The notes: generated by a model not told the origin, from the letters alone. 64,000 nt of DNA from an uncultured Candidatus Saccharibacteria bacterium (GCA_964416765.1 CAYQEU010000001.1:407253-471252); one strand, 5' to 3'; shown: positions 6,867-64,000, counted from the first letter of the stretch. A program made the numbers and translations.

Positions 6867-8384
6867 ATGGACGACAACATGTTTCCGCCTGAGCCATACA
6901 AGGGCCCCGACGAACCCAGCGCCAAGCTGGAGATAGAGACCCCTAACGCAATTCCTAATATAGACCCGGCCGCAACGCCGCAACCGGTTAGCGGCTCAAT
7001 ATTCACCCGCATGGGCTGGAAAATACCTACCGCTATAGGTGTGGCTATCTTGCTTTTGGTGGGCTCCGTGGGGTTTGCATATAGCCGGGGTTACACCCTA
7101 AGCGGGTTTAGGTTACTTTCCCCCGAAGCGGTGTGGAATAAATTTTACACTAAGGAATCGTCAAAAATTTACCATGCTAAGTTTACTGCGCAGTATGAGG
7201 ACCCGGAAAGTACTGGTGAGTCCCAGCAAGATTTCGGTTTTACCCTAAAAAACGTCAGACTGTCTTTAGAAGGGAACGCATATGCTGATCTCACGGAAGA
7301 AGATAATCCGGCCATAGACGGCACGGTTAAGTTCACCGCCGGAAGCGGCAGTACTAGCTTTACTAGCGGGGTGGATTACCGAGCTAAAGATGGCGTCTTC
7401 TACTACAAACTCGGCGACATCCCAATTATTAGTGATTTCCTAAAGGGTGATAGCGGACAGAATATAGACTGGGTGAAAGTTAATAGCAAAGATTTGGACA
7501 AATTGTCCGGGGACGATGGTTCTGATATTTTCAAAGACCTAAATAACAACCAAGAATTACAGCAGAAGATCAGACAAATTTGGGTAGACAACCGGGCAAT
7601 ACGTCTCGGAAAATACGTTGGGCGGGAAAAGTTAAATGGCGTAAACACCATGCATTTCCAGGCCGAGTTGGATAGGGGAGCCGCAAAAAAAGCAGTGCTG
7701 GACACCATTACCGCTTTGACCGAGAGTGATAAGGGCAAAATCACCGAAGACGACAAAGCATTAGCCGAAGAAATCACCGACCGGTTCTTTAACAAAATTG
7801 AGATAAAGGAGCTTGACGCTTGGATTGGCAGCGCCGATGATAACCTATACCGATTGCATATGCTAAGCAACGCGCCCTCAGTAGCTTCATTGTTTAAATT
7901 AGCTGCGGACCCCGCTCTGCAAAACGAACCCACGACCCTGGACGAAAAGAAAAAAATGATTGACCAAGTGTTCGATAAGATATCCTTTGATGCCACCTTC
8001 AAGCTCGATGTTGACTACAGTGATTACGGGAAATCCCAGGAGGTGCAGGTGCCGGAAAACGCGTATGACATTTTGGGACAGGCCCAAACCGCTGCCGGGG
8101 ATGCCAAGCGCCTCGCGGATGTACGCCAAATAGCCAGCGCGCTGGAGCTCTACTATAACGACAACAACTGGTATCCTTACGGTTTAAATGACTTGGCACC
8201 GACATACCTAAATACCATACCAACCGCTCCCACCCCCGCAGGGGGCAGTTGCACGGAGACTGATAATACCTATAATTATAAGTACTTTGACTCCAACCAT
8301 TACGAACTTCACTTCTGCTTAGGGGCAAAAACCGGCGGTCTTGAGAAGGGAGCCCACACCTTAAGCCAGGCCGGCATCCAATAA
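6867..8384 (+). CDS. Hypothetical membrane-anchored protein with a C-terminal pseudopilin-like globular domain
   Basis: 505 aa with a single TM helix (~res 55-75). The C-terminal segment AKRLADVRQIASALELYYNDNNWYPYG..LNTIPTAP resembles the GspG/type IV pilin head region. Confidence 0.55.
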   Translation: MDDNMFPPEPYKGPDEPSAKLEIETPNAIPNIDPAATPQPVSGSIFTRMGWKIPTAIGVAILLLVGSVGFAYSRGYTLSGFRLLSPEAVWNKFYTKESSKIYHAKFTAQYEDPESTGESQQDFGFTLKNVRLSLEGNAYADLTEEDNPAIDGTVKFTAGSGSTSFTSGVDYRAKDGVFYYKLGDIPIISDFLKGDSGQNIDWVKVNSKDLDKLSGDDGSDIFKDLNNNQELQQKIRQIWVDNRAIRLGKYVGREKLNGVNTMHFQAELDRGAAKKAVLDTITALTESDKGKITEDDKALAEEITDRFFNKIEIKELDAWIGSADDNLYRLHMLSNAPSVASLFKLAADPALQNEPTTLDEKKKMIDQVFDKISFDATFKLDVDYSDYGKSQEVQVPENAYDILGQAQTAAGDAKRLADVRQIASALELYYNDNNWYPYGLNDLAPTYLNTIPTAPTPAGGSCTETDNTYNYKYFDSNHYELHFCLGAKTGGLEKGAHTLSQAGIQ

Positions 8385-18985: not shown

Positions 18986-19061
18986 CGCGGGGTAGAGCAA
19001 TTGGCAGCTCGCAAGGCTCATAACCTTGAGGTTCCCGGTTCGAATCCGGGCCCCGCAACCA
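18986..19061 (+). tRNA. Initiator tRNA-fMet (anticodon CAT), CCA encoded
   Basis: Begins CGCGGGG and ends CCCCGCAACCA, giving a C1xA72 mismatch as in bacterial initiators. Anticodon loop ctCATaa. Confidence 0.8.
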
Positions 19062-19092
19062 AAAAATTTAAGTTATTTAATTAGTACACCGC

Positions 19093-19169
19093 GCCGGCGT
19101 AGCTCAGTTGGTTAGAGCGGAGGACTCATAAGCCTCAGGTCGTTGGTTCAATTCCAACCGCCGGTACCA
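19093..19169 (+). tRNA. tRNA with CAT anticodon (elongator Met or lysidine-modified Ile2), CCA encoded
   Basis: Acceptor gccggcg/cgccggt, anticodon loop ctCATaa, T-arm gttggttcaattccaac. Confidence 0.75.
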
Positions 19170-19198
19170 ATTTGGCCTCGCGGCCACCAATAAATCAT

Positions 19199-19275
19199 GG
19201 ACTGGTAGCTCAGTTGGTTAGAGCGTCCGCCTGTCACGCGGAAGGTCGCGGGTTCGAGTCCCGTTCAGTCCGCCA
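19199..19275 (+). tRNA. tRNA-Asp (anticodon GTC), CCA encoded
   Basis: Acceptor ggactgg/tcagtcc, anticodon stem-loop tccgc-ctGTCac-gcgga, T-loop ggttcgagtcc. Confidence 0.85.
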
Positions 19276-25827: not shown

Positions 25828-27279
25828 ATGGCTGAGCCAAACCAAAATACACCAACTTCCGGCAACGAAGAACCAGCTTTCTATAATGTAATGCCTCGCG
25901 GCAAACGCGATGCCCAGGTTTTTTCGACACCGGTAGTTAAGACTTCCAGTTCAACCCTTTCAGATGCCCCGGATTTGACTCCCGACAAGTCAGCTTTTGC
26001 CGTACCCCGGTCGGGTCGTCGCATTGGCATGATTATCGGTTTGGCTATCGCGGTTTTGGTGTTGGTAGCTTTTGGCTATCTCGGCTACCGCTATGCCAAG
26101 CAGCGCCAAAACACCGCGAAGTCTAACAACAACGAGAATGTTGAACCCGCCAACAATTCCAACACCGATCAGCAGATCAGCGGAGTCACGACTCCGCCGG
26201 AATGGCAACAGCGCTATTTCAGTTCCGCTACTTGCAGCGACATAAACGTGTGCGGAGATACCGCTGACCCTGACCGGGACGGTTTAAATAATCTTGACGA
26301 GTACAATACCAAGACTGACCCGAACAACAACGATAGTGACGGTGATGGTTTAGCCGATGGGGACGAAGCGCACATTTTTGGCGGCAGCCCCCTAACTCAG
26401 CGCACAAACTCCTCAGTTGAATACACTGACGCTGATTTCGCAAAAGGCGGATACGACGTTAACACGAATGAAAAATTTACTGCCGACCGCTTAAGTGAAA
26501 TCAAAACGAAGATCAAAGACAAAGGGTTGCACCAGCCAACTATTAAAACTTTAGGCGCTGATGCGTTAAAGCAATATGACTTTACCGATGTCTCGGCAAC
26601 CAACGACAACTCCGACAGCTCAAGCATAGACAGCTCAATTGACCAGTCCCCATCAGCGAAATTGGCGCGGGATACTCGCCGTGCCGATACCATCAAAAAA
26701 GTTGGGGGCGCATTGCTTAAATACAAAGATGCCAACCACGGAACTTTCCCGGACGCGACTGATTTCCCAAGTATGGTCCAAAAAATTAAGCCATATCTTT
26801 CGGTTGCCACCAACTTTGACGACCCCATTAACAAGGACAAGTATGTCTATGGTTACGTCAGCACGAACAGCAACCAGGATTTCACGTTGATGTACTACAG
26901 CGAAACCCAAAACCTGCTCATCAAGTATACCGCTCAGCAGGCCCAGCTTGACCAGGTAAAGGACAACGCCAGCGCCAACGACAACATCCGCCTCCACGAT
27001 ATTCAAAACATAGCTACGGCCCTGGGAATTTACTCTGACGCCCACACTTCCGCGAATGGAACCAATGAAAAAGTTTTCCCTCCGCAGGACAGCTGGAAAC
27101 AAGAATTGATTAACGGCCACTTCATCAGCCAAATTCCAACCGACCCTCGGACCGGCCAGGACTATGACTACCAGGTGGGCGACCACTTTGACACATTCAC
27201 GCTTAAAGCCACTTACGACAATCCGCCCCGAGGACAAACAGGCTACATGTGCAACCAGATCGAGTGTAAGAATTACTAG
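25828..27279 (+). CDS. Membrane-anchored extracellular protein with thrombospondin-type-3-like Ca-binding D-rich repeats and two tandem pseudopilin-like domains
   Basis: TM helix (IGMIIGLAIAVLVLVAFGYLGY), then DPDRDGLNNLDEYNTKTDPNNNDSDGDGLADGDE. Two pilin-head-like segments (RRADTIKKVGGALLKYKDANHGTFPD; IRLHDIQNIATALGIYSDAHTS..FPP). Confidence 0.6.
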   Translation: MAEPNQNTPTSGNEEPAFYNVMPRGKRDAQVFSTPVVKTSSSTLSDAPDLTPDKSAFAVPRSGRRIGMIIGLAIAVLVLVAFGYLGYRYAKQRQNTAKSNNNENVEPANNSNTDQQISGVTTPPEWQQRYFSSATCSDINVCGDTADPDRDGLNNLDEYNTKTDPNNNDSDGDGLADGDEAHIFGGSPLTQRTNSSVEYTDADFAKGGYDVNTNEKFTADRLSEIKTKIKDKGLHQPTIKTLGADALKQYDFTDVSATNDNSDSSSIDSSIDQSPSAKLARDTRRADTIKKVGGALLKYKDANHGTFPDATDFPSMVQKIKPYLSVATNFDDPINKDKYVYGYVSTNSNQDFTLMYYSETQNLLIKYTAQQAQLDQVKDNASANDNIRLHDIQNIATALGIYSDAHTSANGTNEKVFPPQDSWKQELINGHFISQIPTDPRTGQDYDYQVGDHFDTFTLKATYDNPPRGQTGYMCNQIECKNY

Positions 27280-41450: not shown

Positions 41451-42128
41451 ATGATTGAATTCCAAAACGTAACTAAATATTACGGCGACAGCAAAGCCCT
41501 AAATGATATCAACCTGACCATAAATCAGGGTGAATTTATTTCACTGGTGGGAATGTCGGGAGCCGGAAAATCAACTTTAATGAAGCTGATTTTCGGCGAA
41601 GAAACCATTGATGAAGGAAAAATCCTGATTGATGATATTGACCTATCCAGCGTGCGCAAAGCCGACTTGCCTTACCTGCGCCGCAAAATTGGGATTGTGT
41701 TCCAGGACATCAAATTACTGCCCCGCCTGACCGCGTTTGAAAACGTAGCTTTCGCCATGGAAGTCTCCGGCCACAGCAAGCAGAAAATTGACAAGGATGT
41801 CCCACGGATTTTGGAATTGGTTGGCCTGCTCCATAAGCGCCACAACTTCCCGCACGAGATGTCCGGCGGGGAGATGCAGCGCGTGGCGATTGCGCGCTCA
41901 TTGGCCCACCGCCCAGTTTTGCTCCTCGCTGACGAACCCACCGGCAACCTCGACGAAGTAAACGCCAATGAAGTGTTAGACCTTCTGACTAAAATCAATA
42001 AACTTGGAACGACTGTTATTTTGGCCACCCACGCGGCGGACTTGGTCAATAAGATCAACAAGCGCGTGGTTACCATTGAAGGCGGCCAGATCACTTTGGA
42101 GCAGCAGCAAGGAAAGTACAAACTCTAA
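41451..42128 (+). CDS. ftsE: Cell division ATP-binding protein FtsE
   Basis: Walker A GMSGAGKST, ABC signature MSGGEMQRVAIARS, Walker B LLLADEPT. Confidence 0.9.
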   Translation: MIEFQNVTKYYGDSKALNDINLTINQGEFISLVGMSGAGKSTLMKLIFGEETIDEGKILIDDIDLSSVRKADLPYLRRKIGIVFQDIKLLPRLTAFENVAFAMEVSGHSKQKIDKDVPRILELVGLLHKRHNFPHEMSGGEMQRVAIARSLAHRPVLLLADEPTGNLDEVNANEVLDLLTKINKLGTTVILATHAADLVNKINKRVVTIEGGQITLEQQQGKYKL

Positions 42129-43042
42129 TGAACTTTATTTCCCTCGGGCGCATTATCCGCAATGGTGCCACCAATTTTTACCGAAACCGCTGGCTCTCAG
42201 TAGCCGCCACTTTGATTATGGTAGTAACTTTGATAATCCTGTCCGTAATGTTCTTGCTGTTTGTGATTACCAGTTTTTCGGTCAGCAGCATTCGCGAGCG
42301 AGTGGACATTAGCGCCTACTTCAAACAGGGACTGAACGAAAACCAGATTTTAGCGGTTAAGGCTGATTTGGAAAATGACAGTAAGGTCAAAGAAGTCACT
42401 TACGTTTCCTCCGACCAGGCGCTGGAAGACTTTAAGAAACGACATGCTGATACCCCGCTGTTAGTTGACTCAATTAAGGAGCTAAGTGAGAACCCGTTCC
42501 CGGCAACCTTGCAGGTCAAAGGCAACAATCTGGATGACTACCCGGCGATTGCCCAGCAACTGCAGGGGGACAAGTACAAAAACAGCATCGAAAAAGTTAA
42601 CTATGAAGATAACCGCACCACCATTGAACGGCTGCGCGTTTTGCTTCGTTTCGTAATTATCGGCGGGATTGGCCTAATTAGCGTATTCTCCATAATCGCT
42701 ATTTTGGTAATTTTCAACACCATCACCCTCACAATCTACAACCGCCGCGAAGAAGTGGAAATCATGCGGCTCGTTGGCGCGACCAACTGGTACATCCGGG
42801 GACCGTTCCTAATGGAAGCCATGATGTACAGCATAGTTGCCACTATCCTGACCAGTGCTTTGCTGGTGCCATTTTACGTAAAAATTGTTCCAGCCATAAA
42901 CACCTACCTGAATCCCGGCGGAACGGTATTTAGTTCCACTTTCATTAGTTTCCCGGTTTTGGTGGCGCTTCAATTGGGCATAGCCCTGCTCTTGAGCATT
43001 GTTTCCTCCATGCTAGCCATCCGCCGCTACTTGAGAATATAG
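42128..43042 (+). CDS. ftsX: Cell division permease FtsX
   Basis: 4-TM topology with a large periplasmic loop. Immediately follows ftsE with an overlapping stop/start. Confidence 0.8.
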   Translation: MNFISLGRIIRNGATNFYRNRWLSVAATLIMVVTLIILSVMFLLFVITSFSVSSIRERVDISAYFKQGLNENQILAVKADLENDSKVKEVTYVSSDQALEDFKKRHADTPLLVDSIKELSENPFPATLQVKGNNLDDYPAIAQQLQGDKYKNSIEKVNYEDNRTTIERLRVLLRFVIIGGIGLISVFSIIAILVIFNTITLTIYNRREEVEIMRLVGATNWYIRGPFLMEAMMYSIVATILTSALLVPFYVKIVPAINTYLNPGGTVFSSTFISFPVLVALQLGIALLLSIVSSMLAIRRYLRI

Positions 43043-49310: not shown

Positions 49311-49472
49311 ATGCCGATAGACAACAACCTACCTCCCTTTCTGCGAGACGAACTAAAACGAATAGAGGAGGAAGCCCGGGAAAACTTAAGGGAACTAGCG
49401 GAAGAACGGCTTCGTTTAACCCATAATTTTGATGATGCCGCCATGGATAGCATTAGAAAACAACTCTCATGA
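49311..49472 (+). CDS. Small hypothetical protein (53 aa), translationally coupled
   Basis: ATG overlaps the upstream stop (TAACATG) and its stop overlaps the next ATG (ATGA). Charged helical peptide. Confidence 0.4.
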   Translation: MPIDNNLPPFLRDELKRIEEEARENLRELAEERLRLTHNFDDAAMDSIRKQLS

Positions 49473-51313
49473 AGGAAACCGAACTCCACGAACCGGGGAG
49501 CGATTTTGAGCAGGAGCTAGAAACTCCGGAAACTGCCGAAACCACAGAAACGGCGGAGACTTTAGATGCGGCCGAAGGAAAAGAACGGATCGGCACGGTA
49601 CGATCCTGGGTGGGCCAAAAATTTGGGGAACTGGCCAATGTTTTGCGCAAAGACGTTCAATTGAACGAGGAGATGTTTGAAAAGCTTAAGCCCCAAATCG
49701 AAGAAAACAGACGAGCCCAAATAGCGGAATTAAACGGAAGAGTGTTAGCATTGCTGGAACGGACGGAGAATGTGGAAAAGTATTACGACGAACAGTTGGA
49801 TGAGCTGGAGCGGCTAAGCGCGCTTAAAGCCGAAGAATACGTAAACATTTCGCCGGAGGATTTCAAAAATCTGCCCCGCATGGACAAACGGGTTTTAGTC
49901 AGCGAAGGCTTGCTCAGCAAAATTATTGATCAAACTGACGATCCAGAAGCACTCATTGGGTGGACCGGGGTAACCATGGCTTACGAAAGAAAATATATTG
50001 ACCAGATTACAGAGAAGATAGCGCGGCAAGCGGCCAAAGAATATGGTGAACCAAATACCCGGGACGATTGGAAGCTATTGTCTAACCCCGCGTACGAAAA
50101 ACTTAAAGTCATGAGAGGAAGCTCTCATGACAAGGAGAAGGCAATCTACCGCCGGGAAGCCAATGAAAAAATGGATAAGGAAACAGCCGCCCAATTCTTC
50201 CAATGGCAATTTGAAGATGGAAATTATAACGGCGATTTACGCACACTGGGGAATTACATAAAATACGTGCCCGAAGCAGAGAGGGACCCCGAACTTATAG
50301 CGCAAGCCAAGGCGGCCATAAATGAAAAGTACTGGAATATACATTCCGGGAACAGAAACTACGAGCAGCTGGTAGAGCAGATAGACAACTTGGATTCGCC
50401 GGTATCAAAAGTGTTGCAGGCGTTGTGGCAAGGTGAAATGGGCATTCAGCCCTTTGGATCACGCATGGACACAATGGGAAAACAGGTGCGGTTAATTGAA
50501 CGGATGAGAGAGATTATTGGAGACCCGGAACGTGGCCCAAAATATTTGGATTATTTTGTAAAAAAATGCGGCATCACCAACCTAGACCGTTACCCCATGA
50601 GTATGCTGGATGGGGTATACAAAGACCGTGACAATAAAGACAAGCCGTATGGCCTCATGGTGCTGGCGCGGGCGGACGAAAACCAGGCGTTCAGCAAAGA
50701 CAACGAAACATACGAGGAGTTCTATAAGTCCCTGGAAGCAAATGGGCAGCGGTTGCTTTTGGCAGAAGCGGGGAGTGACCGTGAATTGCTGGCAGCCATT
50801 AAGAACGCAACCACTCGGCAGGGAGGAAAAAAAATCGGGTTTATGCTGGTCGGCGGCCACGGCAGCCCGGATAGCATCCAACTTGGCGAAGGCGAAACGG
50901 TTTACCGGCAAACCCCAAAGCGCCGCTTTGATTATGAACAAGATAATGACACCCACATTCGCATGACAGTCCGCGCCGCCCGAAAGTACGTGGAACCAGG
51001 AGCGGAAGTTATGGCTTTGTCATGCTCCACCGGAGCCAAAACTGACAAATACACTTATCCCATTGCCGAATCCACCGCCCGCCGAACTGGCTGGACCACT
51101 CACGGATTTAGCAGGCCCTTAGGGTTTAATAACTTAAAATCCCACATCAAGGAAGACGGCAGAGTAGGGCTTACCGTAGATGTACACGATGGCCCTCTCT
51201 CTATCCATGAAAGGGAAAAGTTCAAGGGAGCTCCCGCGCGGGTTAATACCTTCAAATACGAAAACTTCAAGGCCGAAAGCTACGATTACCTAGCCAAAGC
51301 GGACAAAAAATAA
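49469..51313 (+). CDS. Hypothetical 614-aa protein with a C-terminal caspase-like (C14/CHAT-type) His-Cys dyad candidate
   Basis: N-terminal acidic/coiled-coil region. C-terminal KIGFMLVGGHGSPD ... (55 aa) ... AEVMALSCSTGA gives hydrophobic strand-HG and strand-C spacing like the caspase fold. Confidence 0.55.
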   Translation: MKETELHEPGSDFEQELETPETAETTETAETLDAAEGKERIGTVRSWVGQKFGELANVLRKDVQLNEEMFEKLKPQIEENRRAQIAELNGRVLALLERTENVEKYYDEQLDELERLSALKAEEYVNISPEDFKNLPRMDKRVLVSEGLLSKIIDQTDDPEALIGWTGVTMAYERKYIDQITEKIARQAAKEYGEPNTRDDWKLLSNPAYEKLKVMRGSSHDKEKAIYRREANEKMDKETAAQFFQWQFEDGNYNGDLRTLGNYIKYVPEAERDPELIAQAKAAINEKYWNIHSGNRNYEQLVEQIDNLDSPVSKVLQALWQGEMGIQPFGSRMDTMGKQVRLIERMREIIGDPERGPKYLDYFVKKCGITNLDRYPMSMLDGVYKDRDNKDKPYGLMVLARADENQAFSKDNETYEEFYKSLEANGQRLLLAEAGSDRELLAAIKNATTRQGGKKIGFMLVGGHGSPDSIQLGEGETVYRQTPKRRFDYEQDNDTHIRMTVRAARKYVEPGAEVMALSCSTGAKTDKYTYPIAESTARRTGWTTHGFSRPLGFNNLKSHIKEDGRVGLTVDVHDGPLSIHEREKFKGAPARVNTFKYENFKAESYDYLAKADKK

Positions 51314-54735: not shown

Positions 54736-56076
54736 TTATTTATACTTAGGTAATATCCAGCTATCAAGAACAACATTTTGCCGTGCTCTAACGACACAAA
54801 CATTGTTCCTTATTCCATAGCATTCAACATAATGATTTCCATTAAACTTCGTGTTTTCGGGCTGGTGTAAAGTATGATGATCAGTTATTTCACCTCTTGG
54901 TTGCGGCGACCTGTTATCATTCTTAACTTTCCATTTGATGATATCTAGTTCGCTTTCAGTTTCAGCTGAAAAATCTATCTTTCTGTCTGTTTCTATAATC
55001 CCGGCTGCGTCTAAAATAGTATGGCCGAAACCGTTTCTCGCTAAAGCCCTTGCTATAATCTTGATTTTTTCATTTTTCTCGATTAAGACAGGTATCTTTT
55101 TATCAAAAAGGTATTCTTCAGATTCACTTTTTCTAGTGTAATAATTTCCATCAAGCAAATCATCTATATTAGATTCTTCGGACAAATCTTCTAGCTTAAT
55201 CAAAAAGTTGTCTGCTGCATTTAAAATCTTTTCTTTCTCAGCTTCCGTCATGTCTTCAATGTAAGCATCAATGTACTTCGTGCTATCAGCGCGATCCGTT
55301 ATTTGGGGAGAACTTATGTGTTTTGGAAGATCACAAAAGAAATGAAATATCGCTGAATATATATCCATTTGGACGTTTTGGAAAAAGTACTGAATTACTA
55401 TCTGTTCTATGTGAAAAGATTTAAACTTAAAATTTGAATCTTTAGTTTTTACTGCATGTTTCCAGCCCTTTATGAACTTAACAGTCTTTCTAAAATCGGA
55501 GTTTTGGTCGTTTATTGTACGAGACATTTCAATATAACCCCGGGGGTCAGTAGGAATCCATCCCATTTCTTTATGATCTTGAGATAGTTCTTGATATAAG
55601 TGCTTACGTCTGGATGGTCGCACCTTTAGAAGCTCAGGAACTAGGTACTTATCTAAACCGAATTCGTTAACTTCGTGTTTAATAGCAGGTACTATATCTA
55701 ATGAAAATAGAACATCGTCACCATCATTCTCAAAAAAAAGAATAGTTATTGAGTGCGTTTGATATTCAATTTTTACGTTATGAGAAGTGGGCGATTGGTA
55801 TTCTTCGTTTAGTCTGTTATATAGATCATTTAATACTTCCTGAGAAGTCGCAATACTAGACTGAGTGTCACCAATAATATATAAAACATCAAGATCGTGT
55901 AATGGTGTAATGGCTGTGAACCTCGGGTAAGATCCAATTTGTAAACAATTAGATTCACCCAATATTATTTTTAGTGAATCGTATAGATTAGAAATTAATA
56001 ACCTTTCTGCATCTTTAGGAGACAGATTGTTTCTAACATAATCCCTCAAAAGCTTACTAATGGTTTCTTGCGTCAT
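54736..56076 (-). CDS. Pol-beta-superfamily nucleotidyltransferase, CD-NTase/SMODS-like (candidate second-messenger synthase) with a ~200-aa C-terminal domain of unknown function
   Basis: hGS-x12-DLD (QIGSYPRFTAITPLHDLDVLYII) plus a third acidic strand LFSLDIVPA ~65 aa later, the [DE]h[DE]h...hDhVPA pattern of cGAS/DncV-like NTases. 446 aa. AT-rich codon usage. Confidence 0.65.
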   Translation of the reverse strand: MTQETISKLLRDYVRNNLSPKDAERLLISNLYDSLKIILGESNCLQIGSYPRFTAITPLHDLDVLYIIGDTQSSIATSQEVLNDLYNRLNEEYQSPTSHNVKIEYQTHSITILFFENDGDDVLFSLDIVPAIKHEVNEFGLDKYLVPELLKVRPSRRKHLYQELSQDHKEMGWIPTDPRGYIEMSRTINDQNSDFRKTVKFIKGWKHAVKTKDSNFKFKSFHIEQIVIQYFFQNVQMDIYSAIFHFFCDLPKHISSPQITDRADSTKYIDAYIEDMTEAEKEKILNAADNFLIKLEDLSEESNIDDLLDGNYYTRKSESEEYLFDKKIPVLIEKNEKIKIIARALARNGFGHTILDAAGIIETDRKIDFSAETESELDIIKWKVKNDNRSPQPRGEITDHHTLHQPENTKFNGNHYVECYGIRNNVCVVRARQNVVLDSWILPKYK

Positions 56077-56573
56077 ATGCTTGTTGTTATCATAGAAGTA
56101 ACAACATCGTTCAAAAGCCTTCCTCTAAAGTTTGTAACTGCTCCGTTTCTTTGGTTGTCAACGAGATTCATTTGATCTTCGGGCATTGGCCCCTCGGAAC
56201 GAGGAGCGTATACAACTAAAGCGCAAGAATCAGGTTTCTTTTGTATTATAGCTGAAACATCAGTTTTCCAATCAGGCCAATACACCAGATATAATGAACA
56301 TGATTCAGCCTTGCCGATATCACTTATAGAAGAAACTTCAACAATATTTCTTTCCTTAAAAAGATGGGAATCAATCAATAAATCCCTAAGACTGTTAAAA
56401 TGTGAATCTTTTGCGAAAATGGCAATCTTTCGTTTAGATAGACCATTCCCTAATCTGTACAAAGCGGGACTGACTCCATTCAACCAAAGATATATTGCCC
56501 AAATAATTCCTCCGAGCAAAAATAAAGAATCAATAGTTCCTACCACCGTTAAAATGTTTATTGCTATATTCAT
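56073..56573 (-). CDS. N-terminal transmembrane protein with a ~130-aa cytoplasmic alpha/beta domain (candidate effector/sensor)
   Basis: TM segment(s) IAINILTVVGTIDSLFLLGGIIWAIYLWL, then alternating beta-alpha pattern (KIAIFAKDSHFNSLRDLL..LYLVYW..ALVVYAP). Stop overlaps the NTase start (ATGA). Confidence 0.6.
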   Translation of the reverse strand: MNIAINILTVVGTIDSLFLLGGIIWAIYLWLNGVSPALYRLGNGLSKRKIAIFAKDSHFNSLRDLLIDSHLFKERNIVEVSSISDIGKAESCSLYLVYWPDWKTDVSAIIQKKPDSCALVVYAPRSEGPMPEDQMNLVDNQRNGAVTNFRGRLLNDVVTSMITTSI

Positions 56574-57896: not shown

Positions 57897-57925
57897 AACA
57901 AAAACCCGGGTTTGCACCCGGGTCA
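57897..57925 (-). terminator. Rho-independent terminator of the minus-strand hydrolase/pilin locus
   Basis: Palindromic hairpin acccgggt-ttgc-acccgggt with a T-run on the minus strand. Confidence 0.6.
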
Positions 57926-58541: not shown

Positions 58542-59636
58542 TTATCTGCCTATGTAATTAATATGAAGGTTAGGTCCCGTAGTCGTGGGGAATACTTTGT
58601 AGTCTTTAATGGCCGTGCATTTTGGATCCTTAGAGGCTTCGTTGGCAAAGTTAACTTTACCCAATGAAATGATTGCTTCACAAAGGGTGGGCCAGTTAGG
58701 GTTAGTTGAACCTGCCTCTTTGGAATAACTAGGAGAACGTCCCCCGTTTAGCGCCAAATCCACGCAATTTCCACCCCGTGGATCCCCTGTCTTATGGCAA
58801 CCGCTAATGTGGGTTCCACTAATGCTGGAAGTAAGTATCCAACTTATACCAGGGGTTTTAGCTTTTAATCCGGCCAGTTGATCAGCCAAATCCTTGCATA
58901 GCTTACTCGCGCCGGCAGCATGCGGTATGCTGGCGGGAGTATCTACAATACCTCCGGAACAATTCACAGCAGTACCGGGCTTTGATCCGGTGGAAACGGT
59001 ATCGTCATTAGCACCGTGGCTGACCGCGGTATCGCAGTCGTCCGTTTCCCCTAGCCCCAAATCTTTGCATCCGGGCAACTCGTAATTGCCCAACAACTGC
59101 GGTGGCTGGATGCTCCTGAAGGCCACTAAGGTAGGGTTGATTTGTCTGAGTAAGACGTAGGAAGACAGCATGATCAGGAAACCTGCCAATACAGAGACCA
59201 GTATCTCCTTGGCCTGTTCTTTGCCATGCTCTCCTCCCACCATGTACATATACCCTGCCAGGACCACAAAGAAGACGGAAGCTACCGCTCCAAAAGCTAG
59301 GGCAAAGCGGTAACCCTTGTTGACACAGGTAGCCAGGTCCCCTGCTGATTGGTTGTCGGTTACCTGGGCGTTCTCCTGGAAAGTACCAGTGTTGGTGACG
59401 GTGGCGTTGGAAGGGGTGGGGGCACAAAGCAGGGCCCTGATGGAGCTTTCTACTCCCCTGCCTACATAGGTGGCTCCCGGTGACTTGGTGGGCGCGTTGT
59501 TGGCTGGGGCGTTGTTGGTGGGGGGAACCGGGTTAGGAATAAGCTGGGCGTTGGCTGGGGCAGCGTAGGCAAAAACCATTTCCACAAAAGCAATGGAAAG
59601 GATTATCAATTTTAAAGTATTGGTTTTGGTTTTCAT
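58542..59636 (-). CDS. Paralog A: shared signal-peptide + two-TM pilin-like module fused to an unknown C-terminal domain (possible LAS/M15-like peptidase)
   Basis: N-terminal 190 aa nearly identical to paralogs B and C. The C-terminus has HKTGDPRGGNCVDLAL and LHINY, which could form a metal site. 364 aa. Confidence 0.6.
   Translation of the reverse strand: MKTKTNTLKLIILSIAFVEMVFAYAAPANAQLIPNPVPPTNNAPANNAPTKSPGATYVGRGVESSIRALLCAPTPSNATVTNTGTFQENAQVTDNQSAGDLATCVNKGYRFALAFGAVASVFFVVLAGYMYMVGGEHGKEQAKEILVSVLAGFLIMLSSYVLLRQINPTLVAFRSIQPPQLLGNYELPGCKDLGLGETDDCDTAVSHGANDDTVSTGSKPGTAVNCSGGIVDTPASIPHAAGASKLCKDLADQLAGLKAKTPGISWILTSSISGTHISGCHKTGDPRGGNCVDLALNGGRSPSYSKEAGSTNPNWPTLCEAIISLGKVNFANEASKDPKCTAIKDYKVFPTTTGPNLHINYIGR
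59097..59526. repeat. Repeat copy A (~430 bp) of the shared 5' pilin-like module
   Basis: Near-identical to 60861-61326 and 62121-62586, with 2 mismatches seen by eye. Confidence 0.8.
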
Positions 59637-59646
59637 ATATTTAAAA

Positions 59647-60189
59647 TTACTCTGTTGGGCAAAAGCTTAAGCCAACGTTATATGGATTAGGTCGATAGTC
59701 ATCAGGCGGGGATTTGTAAACATAAATCGGCAATTGGCAAAGGTCGGCTTTGGGTGCGCCAAATAACTCAACCAGAGCCTGCTCCGCCGCTTTCTTTGCT
59801 GAATCCACGTCATTTTGGTCAGTGATCCACAGTTCGAACTGGTCCCCATCCGGCTGATAATCTATCTTGTACTGGTCTGTTTGCGAGAGAAGCAACGGAG
59901 TAGAAGCCGATGGACTATAATCTTTAGGAAATACATTCCTGATTTTAATGGACCCGTTAACCGTTTTGTAATAAATCCATTCTTGGGTGATGTCCTTTTG
60001 CGGGCTATTGGGGTAGTTTAATTTCTTTGACAGGGCGTTTGTCTGGTCTGTCCTGGTACCCGGGTTGTTGGAATTGGTGACACCCTGCCTTTGACCGGAC
60101 AAAATAAAGACCACAATAATTACCAGGATAATTAACAATACCGCCCCAATGGCAACGTATATTTTATTTTCCTTAATTAAATTCCACAT
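59647..60189 (-). CDS. Hypothetical membrane-anchored protein
   Basis: N-terminal TM helix IYVAIGAVLLIILVIIVVFIL then a soluble domain. Start overlaps the upstream gene's end. Confidence 0.5.
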   Translation of the reverse strand: MWNLIKENKIYVAIGAVLLIILVIIVVFILSGQRQGVTNSNNPGTRTDQTNALSKKLNYPNSPQKDITQEWIYYKTVNGSIKIRNVFPKDYSPSASTPLLLSQTDQYKIDYQPDGDQFELWITDQNDVDSAKKAAEQALVELFGAPKADLCQLPIYVYKSPPDDYRPNPYNVGLSFCPTE

Positions 60190-61406
60190 TGTGTTTTATA
60201 CTCGTTATAAACACGGGACATTCTAACCACATAGTCTCGGGTTTGCTCCAAAGAGTTAGCTCCTACAATGCAAGCAGTTTGGGCGGCATCCTTGAACGGA
60301 CACAGCGCCACTATCATGCCCGGACATATGCTACTGGGTCCTATCCTCCCCTCTCCGGCATTGTAGCCAGCCGCAATTTTTACGTAATCAACTCCGCCCG
60401 CTTTTTGCGCGATGTACTTCATGTATTTGGCGGCGCAGGGAATTTCCGCGATCCCGTTGGTTTGCCACCCATTGTTAGTGCAGCCAAACCGCGCGGCGGT
60501 GTCATTGCTCATTTGCATTAGCCCCTTACAGCATCCAGTCCAGCTGACTAGGGTTTGGTTTAAGTTGCTCTCAATTGTAGCTATGGTCTTAATAAAATTT
60601 GGGTCAATTCCATTAGCTTGCCCGGCCGCTTTGAACGCGGCATCAAAAGTCTTGTTACTGCATAGGGTTTTAAGCTTTGGACTGTCCTTTCCCAAACTGC
60701 AAACTTTCCCGCTTTTCCCCGTCATTGTTCCGCCCTGAGGTGGAATTCCTGTACCGTCGCCATTACTGACCCCGGGGGTGCCATCGGCAAGGGCGCAATC
60801 GTCCCCCTGGCCCAGATGCACGTCGCTACAGCTGGGAAGGTCACTATACTTCCCCAACAGCTGCGGTGGCTGGATGCTCCTGAAGGCCACTAAGGTAGGG
60901 TTGATTTGTCTGAGTAAGACGTAGGAAGACAGCATGATCAGGAAACCTGCCAATACAGAGACCAGTATCTCCTTGGCCTGTTCTTTGCCATGCTCTCCTC
61001 CCACCATGTACATATACCCTGCCAGGACCACAAAGAAGACGGAAGCTACCGCTCCAAAAGCTAGGGCAAAGCGGTAACCCTTGTTGACACAGGTAGCCAG
61101 GTCCCCTGCTGATTGGTTGTCGGTTACCTGGGCGTTCTCCTGGAAAGTACCAGTGTTGGTGACGGTGGCGTTGGAAGGGGTGGGGGCACAAAGCAGGGCC
61201 CTGATGGAGCTTTCTACTCCCCTGCCTACATAGGTGGCTCCCGGTGGCTTTGTGGGCGCGTTGTTGGCTGGGGCGTTGTTGGTGGGGGGATCAGCTAAGG
61301 CAGGGGTAGTGAAGGCGAGGAATTGGAGAGGGATTAGCACCAAAATATAAACCAAAAACACTACTTTGCCGTATCGCGTTTTGTTTCTGGATCGAAAAAT
61401 ATTCAT
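60177..61406 (-). CDS. Paralog B: pilin-like module fused to a family-1 lytic transglycosylase (SLT) domain
   Basis: The C-terminus carries the SLT triad ES (TIATIESNLN), GLMQ (CKGLMQMS) and AYNAG (AAGYNAGEG). Shared N-terminal module. Confidence 0.7.
   Translation of the reverse strand: MNIFRSRNKTRYGKVVFLVYILVLIPLQFLAFTTPALADPPTNNAPANNAPTKPPGATYVGRGVESSIRALLCAPTPSNATVTNTGTFQENAQVTDNQSAGDLATCVNKGYRFALAFGAVASVFFVVLAGYMYMVGGEHGKEQAKEILVSVLAGFLIMLSSYVLLRQINPTLVAFRSIQPPQLLGKYSDLPSCSDVHLGQGDDCALADGTPGVSNGDGTGIPPQGGTMTGKSGKVCSLGKDSPKLKTLCSNKTFDAAFKAAGQANGIDPNFIKTIATIESNLNQTLVSWTGCCKGLMQMSNDTAARFGCTNNGWQTNGIAEIPCAAKYMKYIAQKAGGVDYVKIAAGYNAGEGRIGPSSICPGMIVALCPFKDAAQTACIVGANSLEQTRDYVVRMSRVYNEYKTQCGI
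60861..61326. repeat. Repeat copy B (466 bp)
   Basis: Identical by eye to 62121-62586. Confidence 0.85.
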
Positions 61407-61421
61407 ACAGTTATTGTAACA

Positions 61422-62645
61422 CTAACAACCCGAAGTTTTATATGATGTCCACACTGCCTTGGCCCACACGCCATAACCATCCCCTCCCGGGTGGATCCCA
61501 TTATATTTTTGTGGGAAGATATTTAAATTCTTGGAATAAGTATCGTAATAGCAACCGCTTTGCCCGCTCTTTATACCGGCTATTACAGTTTGGACAGTAG
61601 TGTTATTTACGTTCGGGGTATCAGTACGCGATCCTCCCTCAGATGTAGTAGAAGTAAATTTCGGAGGGCCAATCCAAATTATTTTACCCACACCTTTGCT
61701 CTGGAGTACTTGAATTAACTTCGCGGTATCAGTTTTTACCTGTTGTTGATTGTGTTGGCCATTTGCGTCATTCGTCCCCAACGAAATCACTACAATACTT
61801 GGTTTATTGCTAGCATAATAATCCAAAGATTGCGCGGCAAAAGAATTCGCCCATTGTGTAATGGTAGTACCTCCTCTGTTATCAGGATCCTCACCCATCC
61901 CCCTATTAACCAGAACGCCACCATCCGCCGCGATAAGAGTTTTAAATTGTGGCTTGAGGCCCACAGAAAGCGAATCTCCAATAATTAGAAACTTTATCCC
62001 CTGGGTTTGTCCTGGCCCCCCATTACTGCCCCCTCCTGTAGTGGTGTTCCCTTGTGCATCAACACAGTTCTCCCCGAGTCCCGCATCAGCACAGCTTGGG
62101 AGGCTGTATTTGCCGACTAGCTGCGGTGGCTGGATGCTCCTGAAGGCCACTAAGGTAGGGTTGATTTGTCTGAGTAAGACGTAGGAAGACAGCATGATCA
62201 GGAAACCTGCCAATACAGAGACCAGTATCTCCTTGGCCTGTTCTTTGCCATGCTCTCCTCCCACCATGTACATATACCCTGCCAGGACCACAAAGAAGAC
62301 GGAAGCTACCGCTCCAAAAGCTAGGGCAAAGCGGTAACCCTTGTTGACACAGGTAGCCAGGTCCCCTGCTGATTGGTTGTCGGTTACCTGGGCGTTCTCC
62401 TGGAAAGTACCAGTGTTGGTGACGGTGGCGTTGGAAGGGGTGGGGGCACAAAGCAGGGCCCTGATGGAGCTTTCTACTCCCCTGCCTACATAGGTGGCTC
62501 CCGGTGGCTTTGTGGGCGCGTTGTTGGCTGGGGCGTTGTTGGTGGGGGGATCAGCTAAGGCAGGGGTAGTGAAGGCGAGGAATTGCAGCGCTAAAACAGC
62601 GGCTGTAAACCCGATCCTAAAGTATTTTGGTTTTTGTTTCCACAT
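61422..62645 (-). CDS. Paralog C: pilin-like module fused to a GDSL/SGNH hydrolase domain
   Basis: SGNH blocks: GDS (LIIGDSLSVG), GxND (VVISLGTNDANG), DxxH region (NGIHPGGDG). Shared N-terminal module. Confidence 0.7.
   Translation of the reverse strand: MWKQKPKYFRIGFTAAVLALQFLAFTTPALADPPTNNAPANNAPTKPPGATYVGRGVESSIRALLCAPTPSNATVTNTGTFQENAQVTDNQSAGDLATCVNKGYRFALAFGAVASVFFVVLAGYMYMVGGEHGKEQAKEILVSVLAGFLIMLSSYVLLRQINPTLVAFRSIQPPQLVGKYSLPSCADAGLGENCVDAQGNTTTGGGSNGGPGQTQGIKFLIIGDSLSVGLKPQFKTLIAADGGVLVNRGMGEDPDNRGGTTITQWANSFAAQSLDYYASNKPSIVVISLGTNDANGQHNQQQVKTDTAKLIQVLQSKGVGKIIWIGPPKFTSTTSEGGSRTDTPNVNNTTVQTVIAGIKSGQSGCYYDTYSKNLNIFPQKYNGIHPGGDGYGVWAKAVWTSYKTSGC
62121..62586. repeat. Repeat copy C (466 bp)
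   Basis: Identical by eye to 60861-61326, 1260 bp apart. Confidence 0.85.
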
Positions 62646-63924: not shown

Positions 63925-63955
63925 AGTTATTATAGCACAAAATCCGAATTTATGC
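63925..63955 (-). promoter_or_regulatory. Extended -10 promoter (TGcTATAAT on minus strand) for the M23/hydrolase locus
   Basis: The minus-strand reading ...ttgtgctataataactaagcATG places TGnTATAAT ~8 nt before the start, suggesting a short or leaderless mRNA. Confidence 0.35.
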
Positions 63956-64000
63956 CAATTTTTAGGTGAATTTAGTTAGAGCGATGCTGCTGCTGAATTT

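Follow-up and report, generated by a model that had tools for sequence, protein, structure and literature searches.

Three neighbouring genes of an uncultured Candidatus Saccharibacteria bacterium share almost the same DNA in their 5' parts and end in different enzymes. They lie in a 64,000-nucleotide stretch of its genome (GCA_964416765.1 CAYQEU010000001.1:407253-471252), here called the window, and are named A, B and C after the repeat copies that they carry. The locus raises the question of what keeps more than 400 base pairs identical, synonymous sites included, in genes with different C-terminal domains. In the account favoured here, one module is present in three genes of an operon, is homogenised by recombination and is fused to different predicted peptidoglycan hydrolases, which it would anchor by a membrane hairpin. 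The probability of this account is put at about 0.75. All coordinates are positions in the whole window. L-numbers (L001-L033) designate loci or contigs of relatives that were compared with it.

Identity of the module within and between genomes

Copies B and C are identical over 467 bp, a result on which an ungapped self-comparison and blastn agree. In both comparisons, the 430 bp of copy A agree with B and C except at positions 59483 and 59487; one of these two mismatches is synonymous and the other exchanges Ser and Pro. A repeat finder grouped the three copies into one family, spaced 1764 and 1260 bp apart, and blastn detected no fourth copy in the window. All three are direct repeats on the minus strand and occupy the 5' part of their genes (Table 1). 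Near-identical repeats at the 5' ends of three genes had been described in an earlier note on this DNA, and the pairwise comparison bears this out; the coordinates given there were exact for copy A and off by 1-2 nucleotides for copies B and C. Chance cannot explain the identity.

The identical tract has sharp borders. In the core, 428-430 of 430 positions agree, versus 30/60 to 37/60 in the adjoining heads and 40/94 to 53/91 in the linkers. These heads and linkers are homologous, with an identity of only 43-62%. The same holds for the signal peptides and for the Cys-containing linker behind the module, which are homologous in A, B and C and have diverged; the last 11 signal-peptide codons are common to B and C and belong to the identical tract. 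Between the three genes, no part other than the enzymatic C-terminal domains is unrelated. The earlier description of the flanks as unrelated is thus correct for these domains and incorrect for the signal peptides and the Cys linker. Homologous but diverged heads and linkers beside an identical core make each gene a sharply bounded mosaic and not the remnant of a young whole-gene duplicate.

Among the 155 codons shared by B and C, none differs, which upholds the claim that the identity extends to synonymous sites. Over the same codons, gene C and its orthologue in L033 differ in 31 codons synonymously and in 6 nonsynonymously (88% nucleotide identity). The synonymous divergence from an orthologue in the same core indicates that the identity within the window originates from recombination and not from selection on the protein. 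Selection on the sequence itself, by codon or protein constraint or by an embedded RNA or DNA element, deserves hardly any weight. The GC content at third codon positions (GC3) would suit it, with 0.65 in the core, higher than in the tails (0.40-0.54) and in housekeeping genes (0.50-0.60). This GC3 excess is, however, also present in single-copy and non-homogenised family members. The L033 core effectively refutes such selection, having kept the protein with 31 synonymously altered codons. Moreover, module proteins differ by 40-65% between genomes, and the repeat region has no Rfam match: a scan at gathering thresholds yielded tRNAs only, all outside this region.

Homogenised modules are not a peculiarity of the window. 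Tandem modules are 96-100% identical within at least nine other Patescibacteria genomes. The identity is 100% in L002 (536 bp), L013 (485 bp) and L025 (372 bp), 99.8% in L004, about 98% in L014, L023 and L024, and 96% in L020; the modules of L001 and L002 share 98%. Less homogenised modules are found in L011 and L017 (90% and 87%) and in L006, L007, L009, L010 and L016 (68-80%). A spread from 68% to 100% is expected if conversion is self-reinforcing at high identity and ceases once the copies have drifted apart. The close relatives L011 and L013 have paralogues with 86% identity in one genome and 98% in the other. This contrast argues for a homogenisation that is episodic and recent.

The tails group differently from the modules. 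Tail type X is conserved across genomes in L011_1, L013_1, L017_2, L025_2 and L024_2, and tail type Y in L011_2, L013_2, L017_1 and L014_2. The modules on these tails are 86-100% identical within genomes and 34-59% between genomes, except for the close pair L011/L013 (81-92%). All comparisons together give 86-100% for modules within genomes versus 34-75% between them, with tail types shared across genomes. The tail of A is 61% identical to that of L006_3, and the tail of B is 44-67% identical to those of L004_1, L005_1 and L006_1. For L006, a metagenome-assembled genome (MAG) of the Doudnabacteria, tail identities to the window are 61% for A and 44% for B; the modules of L006 and the window are about 50% identical, compared with 76-100% within each genome. 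The nearest relative is a paralogue of the same genome for 23 of 38 modules, a count that includes genomes that escaped homogenisation and truncated modules that distort the normalisation, and for 0 of 36 tails. The tails were compared in linker-trimmed pairwise matrices; single-linkage clustering merged unrelated tails via the shared Gly-rich linker.

This phylogenetic discordance points to recombination between paralogous modules as the process that keeps their DNA identical, that is, to a concerted evolution by gene conversion that is restricted to the module. Intrachromosomal gene conversion or unequal exchange among the modules, presumably RecA-dependent, would proceed up to the limit of homology, set by the divergence of heads and linkers or by the unrelated tails. 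The same process is probably active independently in many lineages of the Patescibacteria. Over longer times, whole tails are replaced at the linker. Duplication, gene conversion and shuffling had been offered side by side in the earlier note. Modules that cluster by genome and tail types that cross genomes favour gene conversion, and the diverged heads and linkers disfavour a simple recent duplication.

A very recent tandem duplication of a module-bearing gene, followed by tail replacement, would explain the identity by young age, without ongoing conversion. A young duplicate would be expected to show an identity of 99.5-100%. The closest multi-copy relative, L004, has only two fusion genes after its M23 gene, and the extra unit of the window could be a recent insertion or a product of unequal crossing-over. 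This history is unlikely, since the heads and linkers beside the core are homologous yet far less similar than the core. The tail types of A and B have orthologues in the distant L006, L004 and L005 and so predate the split, yet the modules cluster by genome. The same pattern also recurs in nine or more other genomes that share the tail types X and Y.

The shared module and its enzymatic tails

The module starts with a segment containing a Cys pair, behind the cleavable signal peptide, and continues with a two-helix hydrophobic hairpin that has a short Lys-rich loop. The leader of the fusion proteins, read from the sequence, is K/R-rich and hydrophobic and ends in an AxA motif. In an AlphaFold 2 model of the gene A protein, based on a 33-sequence alignment, the hairpin spans residues 100-166 with a predicted local distance difference test (pLDDT) of 86-94. 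Its helices are formed by residues 100-133 and 135-166, with the loop GGEHGKEQAKE. Foldseek matches of the helical hairpin were non-specific histidine-kinase helices.

The extent of the family was revealed by an exhaustive HMMER search; a word-indexed homologue search had given six relatives only. At E<=1e-3, the exhaustive search retrieved 2,560 cluster representatives, of which 254 reached E<=1e-10. Nearly all of the best 150 relatives have 300-560 amino acids, with the module at residues ~40-190. Protein B had no exact match in the assembly index. Module relatives in species-representative genomes all belong to Patescibacteria MAGs (Ca. Saccharibacteria, Ca. Doudnabacteria and Patescibacteria group), and IMG/VR viral contigs contained none. 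A phage or mobile origin was rejected on the basis of this absence and of a conserved chromosomal synteny with gltX and wecG. L003 (578-1171, protein P0001) has a module-only open reading frame (ORF) with 91% nucleotide identity to the window module. Behind '...VLLRQ' it departs from the reading frame of the family, and the remainder is unrelated sequence; P0001 may represent a pseudogene or a frameshift, or the short contig may be chimeric.

Profile comparisons identify the module as homologous to the T4SS_pilin/VirB2-like family (PF18895). This family was matched by 74 of 117 family members scanned at E<=1e-3, with a best value of 3e-15. The modules of A, B and C themselves gave weak, below-threshold matches to T4SS_pilin (PF18895) or TrbC (E=0.003-0.009). 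The operon ends with a stand-alone pilin gene whose product scores above the threshold, and the module profile aligned with it over both hydrophobic helices (hhalign, 93% probability, E=3e-7). Across the hairpin, this pilin is about 30% identical to the module. The modules of A, B and C also have the pilin arrangement of a signal peptide followed by two hydrophobic helices with a short charged loop. Pilins are small stand-alone subunits (mature length ~70-120 amino acids), whereas A, B and C have 364-409 amino acids including an enzymatic domain of 180-230 amino acids. A VirB4-like protein was not found among the six window ORFs of at least 560 amino acids, all of which were scanned. As size and genomic context do not agree with a pilin of a T4SS (type IV secretion system), the module is termed pilin-homologous and not pilin. 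A pilus or T4SS role is unsupported. The signal peptides, the basic loop between the helices and the nature of the tails argue for enzymes located outside the membrane. After the signal peptide, the hairpin would anchor them with the N-terminus outside, the basic loop inside and the C-terminus outside.

The tails are of the SGNH/GDSL type in C, of the SLT type in B and similar to zinc peptidases of the LAS/hedgehog fold in A. The tail of A lacks a Pfam match and is predicted by AlphaFold 2 as a confident domain (pLDDT 90-98). Top Foldseek matches of this domain were hedgehog N-domains (E~1e-3, probability 1.0, target template modelling score ~0.5), VanXYc and MepA. His281, Asp293 and His358 are invariant in 33 homologues. 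At the level of the fold only, the model places this tail among the LAS (lysostaphin / D-Ala-D-Ala peptidase / hedgehog) zinc peptidases with an H/D/H triad. The 117 scanned members of the family have SLT (13), Peptidase_C39_2 (5), M23 (5), M15/VanY families (4, 3 and 2), GDSL (4), Amidase_2 (3), SLT_3 (3) and CHAP (1) tails. The A-type tail, which is invisible to Pfam, is the commonest (33 of the ~150 best family members). A Cys-containing, Gly-rich linker connects tails and module, with a conserved junction of IQPPQL and the Cys linker.

Tails are exchanged between close relatives. L033 (GenBank WBZR01014430.1) codes for GltX, an M23 protein and a gene with the head, module and linker of C (88-90% nucleotide identity). 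The similarity to gene C stops ~84 nucleotides past the repeat boundary. In place of SGNH, L033 has a VanY-like tail (97% identity to P0006), which by tblastn is absent from the window. The first fusion gene of L004 combines a C-like head with a B-like SLT tail, and longer family members carry two tails in series. Besides module conversion, these sequences indicate a replacement or addition of whole tails, with the Gly-rich linker as the joint, between genes separated by short evolutionary distances. Related strains had been proposed as the place to look for swapping, and L033 provides an example. Of the proposed shuffling on a constant module, the tail exchange between L033 and the window stands; silent cassettes, immunity genes and recombinases that would belong to such a mechanism were not found at the locus.

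Programmed cassette switching, in the style of the antigenic variation of pilE/pilS or of polymorphic toxins, would move tails onto a constant expressed module. It would profit from the constant N-terminal part, the conserved junction and the variable C-terminal domains, from the L033 gene, in which head, module and linker are the same but the tail is another, and from the combinatorial tails of the family. However, each copy lies in a complete gene that has a start codon and a signal peptide of its own, and all are in one operon. A promoterless tail-only cassette was not found: tblastn with family proteins and the L033 tail revealed no orphan or silent tail cassettes in the window. Neighbouring ORFs scanned included no recombinase, invertase or reverse transcriptase. 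Gene C is directly followed by B, and A by the pilin gene, so neither C nor A has an immunity-like gene behind it; only B has a small membrane protein gene behind it. Programmed switching is very unlikely. The literal analogy to polymorphic toxins in the earlier note is not supported either, the tails being housekeeping-type peptidoglycan hydrolases and not toxins, in complete co-oriented genes without immunity genes.

Diversity-generating retroelements, shufflons and invertases were rejected as candidates. The repeats are direct, and the neighbouring ORFs scanned contained no recombinase or reverse-transcriptase family. For a diversity-generating retroelement, the two mismatches of copy A do not show the pattern of adenine mutagenesis.

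Operon, synteny and assembly

The gene order is M23 peptidase, C, B, a small membrane-anchored protein (tm180), A and the stand-alone pilin. The genes are co-oriented and abut or overlap. Together with a promoter-like site before the M23 gene and a strong terminator-like hairpin after the pilin gene, this suggests a single operon from 63920 down to 57957 (Table 1).

Table 1. Repeat copies and features of the predicted operon, with positions in the 64-kb window.
Feature	Position	Strand	Description
Sigma-70-like promoter candidate	63929..63958	-	TTGGCA-18-TATAAT, 11/12, with TG; consensus match only; upstream of M23 gene
Coiled-coil + Peptidase_M23 protein, 424 aa	62646..63920	-	Pfam PF01551 E=3e-22; HxxxD and HxH motifs present; first operon gene
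Gene C, 407 aa	61422..62645	-	Signal peptide, pilin-like module, SGNH/GDSL tail; PF13472 E=1e-8; T4SS_pilin E=0.007
Repeat copy C	62119..62585	-	467 bp; codons 21-175 of gene C
Gene B, 409 aa	60177..61406	-	Signal peptide, pilin-like module, SLT lytic-transglycosylase tail; PF01464 E=1.5e-12
Repeat copy B	60859..61325	-	467 bp, 100% identical to copy C; codons 28-182 of gene B
tm180, small N-terminally membrane-anchored protein, 180 aa	59647..60189	-	Start overlaps end of B by 13 nt
Gene A, 364 aa	58542..59636	-	Signal peptide, pilin-like module, LAS/hedgehog-fold Zn-peptidase-like tail
Repeat copy A	59097..59526	-	430 bp, 2 mismatches to B/C; codons 37-180 of gene A
Stand-alone T4SS_pilin protein, 194 aa	57957..58541	-	PF18895 33.2 bits, cut-off 26.6; last operon gene
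Intrinsic-terminator-like hairpin	57903..57924	-	9 pairs, 6 GC, then T-run; ~30 nt past pilin stop codon

The locus order WecG, GltX, coiled-coil M23, fusion gene(s) and pilin is common to distant lineages. In 21 related loci, the first fusion gene has an M23 orthologue (47-72% amino acid identity) directly upstream. The M23 protein of the operon resembles in its architecture the FtsEX-controlled partners EnvC/PcsB, yet it retains HxxxD and HxH. An FtsX gene with an extracellular domain is present at 42128-43042 (+), 20 kb from the operon M23 gene. A link of the operon M23 protein to cell division is possible. The position of tm180 between fusion genes is kept in relatives, with amino acid identities of 44-91% in L004, L005 and L029-L031 and weaker matches of ~25% in L006 and L016. 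The protein matched no family; it could act as partner of the transglycosylase or serve as its regulator or inhibitor. In L019 (5764-9159) and L024 (2770-11933), short inverted repeats of 80-170 bp with 70-84% identity flank or follow the fusion genes.

The window is part of a cellular chromosome with genes for MurJ, LepA, ATP synthase, GyrB, CTP synthase, FtsX and five tRNAs. Three of the tRNA genes are located within 290 bp at 18986-19275 (+), two for tRNA-Met (CAT) and one for tRNA-Asp. ORFs of 614, 505 and 483 amino acids at 49469-51313 (+), 6867-8384 (+) and 25828-27279 (+) have no Pfam match, and the first of them has no PADLOC match either. Just downstream of the operon, a two-gene defence pair resembling a cyclic-oligonucleotide-based antiphage signalling system was detected at 54736-56573 (-). 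It codes for an oligonucleotide cyclase (PADLOC PDLC00785 E=4e-174; Pfam SMODS and AGS_C) and an effector with one transmembrane segment (PDLC00664 E=2e-58). The pair is probably a horizontally acquired islet, judging from a GC content of 0.34 compared with 0.477 for the window.

The module is present in related populations and breaks de Bruijn-graph assemblies. A 785,239-bp contig of the Joint Genome Institute (JGI) starts and ends inside the module, with P0003 and P0004 both pointing inward; a 730-kb contig of a relative starts inside the module. The short contigs L027-L032 all begin with the last 55-77 nucleotides of the module, the signature of a k=55 graph. The assembly-prone nature of the region, anticipated in the earlier note, is evident from these contigs. 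The two ends of the large contig (JGI 3300053153 Ga0500616_0000008) are L001 (1-972) and L002 (1-1295). The heads missing there must be on another contig, and the inverted module copies on that chromosome could mediate large inversions.

The repeat, with 430-467 bp, exceeds the length of short reads. Copies might have been expanded, heads and tails mis-joined across the repeat or differences erased by consensus polishing, and related short-read assemblies break exactly at the module. An assembly or polishing artefact is nevertheless quite unlikely as the source of the pattern. Independent assemblies contain two or three copies per contig in the same architecture (L002, L004, L006, L013, L014, L025 and others), and copy A has two single-nucleotide differences and another 5' boundary. 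L029 is collinear with the window from 60937 down to 59097 at 85% identity, covering the B tail, tm180 and the head and module of A, and its end coincides with the position of the repeat boundary. It corroborates the order B, tm180, A. L033 confirms GltX, M23 and then a C-like head with module.

Several points weigh against the favoured account. Conversion is inferred from discordance and not from observed events. Repeated lineage-specific duplication with tail replacement would leave a similar pattern, but many more events would be needed. GC-biased gene conversion was rejected as evidence: in 46 family genes, the module-minus-tail GC3 excess was not larger in homogenised genomes (0.097 vs 0.035 and 0.082; Mann-Whitney p=0.19). 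As to the hairpin, the modules of A, B and C reach 16.8-18 bits with PF18895 at a gathering cut-off of 26.6. Sequence searches of solved structures with the module profile gave chance matches only and no pilin, and no pilin was among the top 50 Foldseek matches listed for the full gene A model. VirB4 or other T4SS genes were not detected in the window ORFs scanned or in the flanks of relatives that were checked. Copy number and head-tail pairing in the source genome are those predicted by the assembly, and consensus polishing with multi-mapping reads could slightly inflate the identity.

Possible functions and known systems

The enzymes may act on peptidoglycan as a membrane-anchored set, alongside the co-transcribed M23 peptidase. 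The most likely target, held tentatively, is the cell's own wall, for which the operon would supply anchored hydrolases during growth or division. This preference is based on the conservation of the leading M23 gene, on the synteny with housekeeping genes and on the presence of FtsX in another part of the window. An action on the host wall at the epibiotic interface is possible but less likely. It is doubtful that the enzymes serve a pilin or a T4SS-like structure in the manner of VirB1/PrgK. A selected homogenisation is similarly doubtful: enzyme modules and pilin would have to be compatible with one common machinery for assembly or export, possibly with co-polymerisation, as a catalytic pilus or anchor platform that opens the host wall. 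This would mean a VirB2-like surface structure with exchangeable peptidoglycan hydrolases. The fast evolution of modules between lineages and their identity within genomes would then reflect a co-evolution with the machinery or the host.

With its 2,560 cluster representatives, the family is large and almost undescribed. Its members join a VirB2-like hairpin to wall hydrolases, and their operon is conserved, with an M23 gene in first place. They are candidates for wall remodelling in ultra-small epibiotic bacteria or for the breaching of the host's wall. In genome reconstruction, Patescibacteria contigs repeatedly break at the module, among them two of nearly genome size (785 kb and 730 kb) that end in it. 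Without long reads, short-read MAGs are not to be trusted for the number of copies at this locus or for the pairing of heads with tails.

Polymorphic toxins such as Rhs, CdiA-CT and MafB resemble these proteins in the constant N-terminus, the conserved demarcation motif, the interchangeable C-terminal domains and the tail replacement between close strains. They differ in having immunity genes and orphan cassettes; here, the tails are wall hydrolases in full operon genes. The VirB1-like PrgK and TraG/TrsG are membrane-anchored, T4SS-associated peptidoglycan hydrolases of Gram-positive conjugation systems (cited in PMC12102498). In common with PrgK and TraG, the fusion proteins have an N-terminal membrane anchor and extracytoplasmic domains of the SLT, LytM(M23) or CHAP type. 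The multidomain composition of PrgK resembles the set of the operon (M23, SLT, peptidases), which is here distributed over separate polypeptides with one catalytic domain each. The anchor differs as well, a VirB2-like hairpin instead of a single transmembrane helix, and the ORFs scanned in the window and the flanks of relatives checked contain no VirB4, VirB6 or VirD4.

VirB2-like pilin arrays have been described in 383 Patescibacteria assemblies as highly divergent, with a mean of 25% and a maximum of 54% amino acid identity (PMC12102498, Quinonero-Coronel et al. 2025). An essential pilin series is part of the T4SS cluster of Ca. Southlakia epibionticum (PMC10633639). A keyword search of PMC12102498 gave no mention of hydrolase fusions. 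The locus shares with these VirB2-like/T4SS_pilin arrays the phylum, the signal peptide followed by a two-helix hairpin and, in the operon, a stand-alone PF18895 pilin that is homologous to the module. In contrast to the published view of uniformly divergent arrays, the modules here are 100% identical in DNA. Furthermore, each module is fused to a peptidoglycan hydrolase of 180-230 amino acids. The locus follows gltX and an M23 gene, not virB4.

Concerted evolution by gene conversion is known for duplicated tuf genes and for constant regions of bacterial surface-protein families. The literature search found no paper linking gene conversion to the genes described here. The locus has the same features: paralogues within a genome that are closer than orthologues between genomes, identical synonymous sites and sharp tracts with diverged homologous flanks. 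The identities are likewise bimodal, with 96-100% versus 68-80% once copies have escaped. The process is thus a known one, gene conversion among tandem paralogues, in a new instance and in a little-described protein architecture. The difference lies in the tract, which is here a single domain on enzymes with unrelated catalytic folds, and in a homogenisation restricted to this domain that recurs in many lineages of a whole radiation. This would be a phylum-wide case in which concerted evolution affects a single domain and leaves out the catalytic domains attached to it, which are old, diverse and interchangeable.

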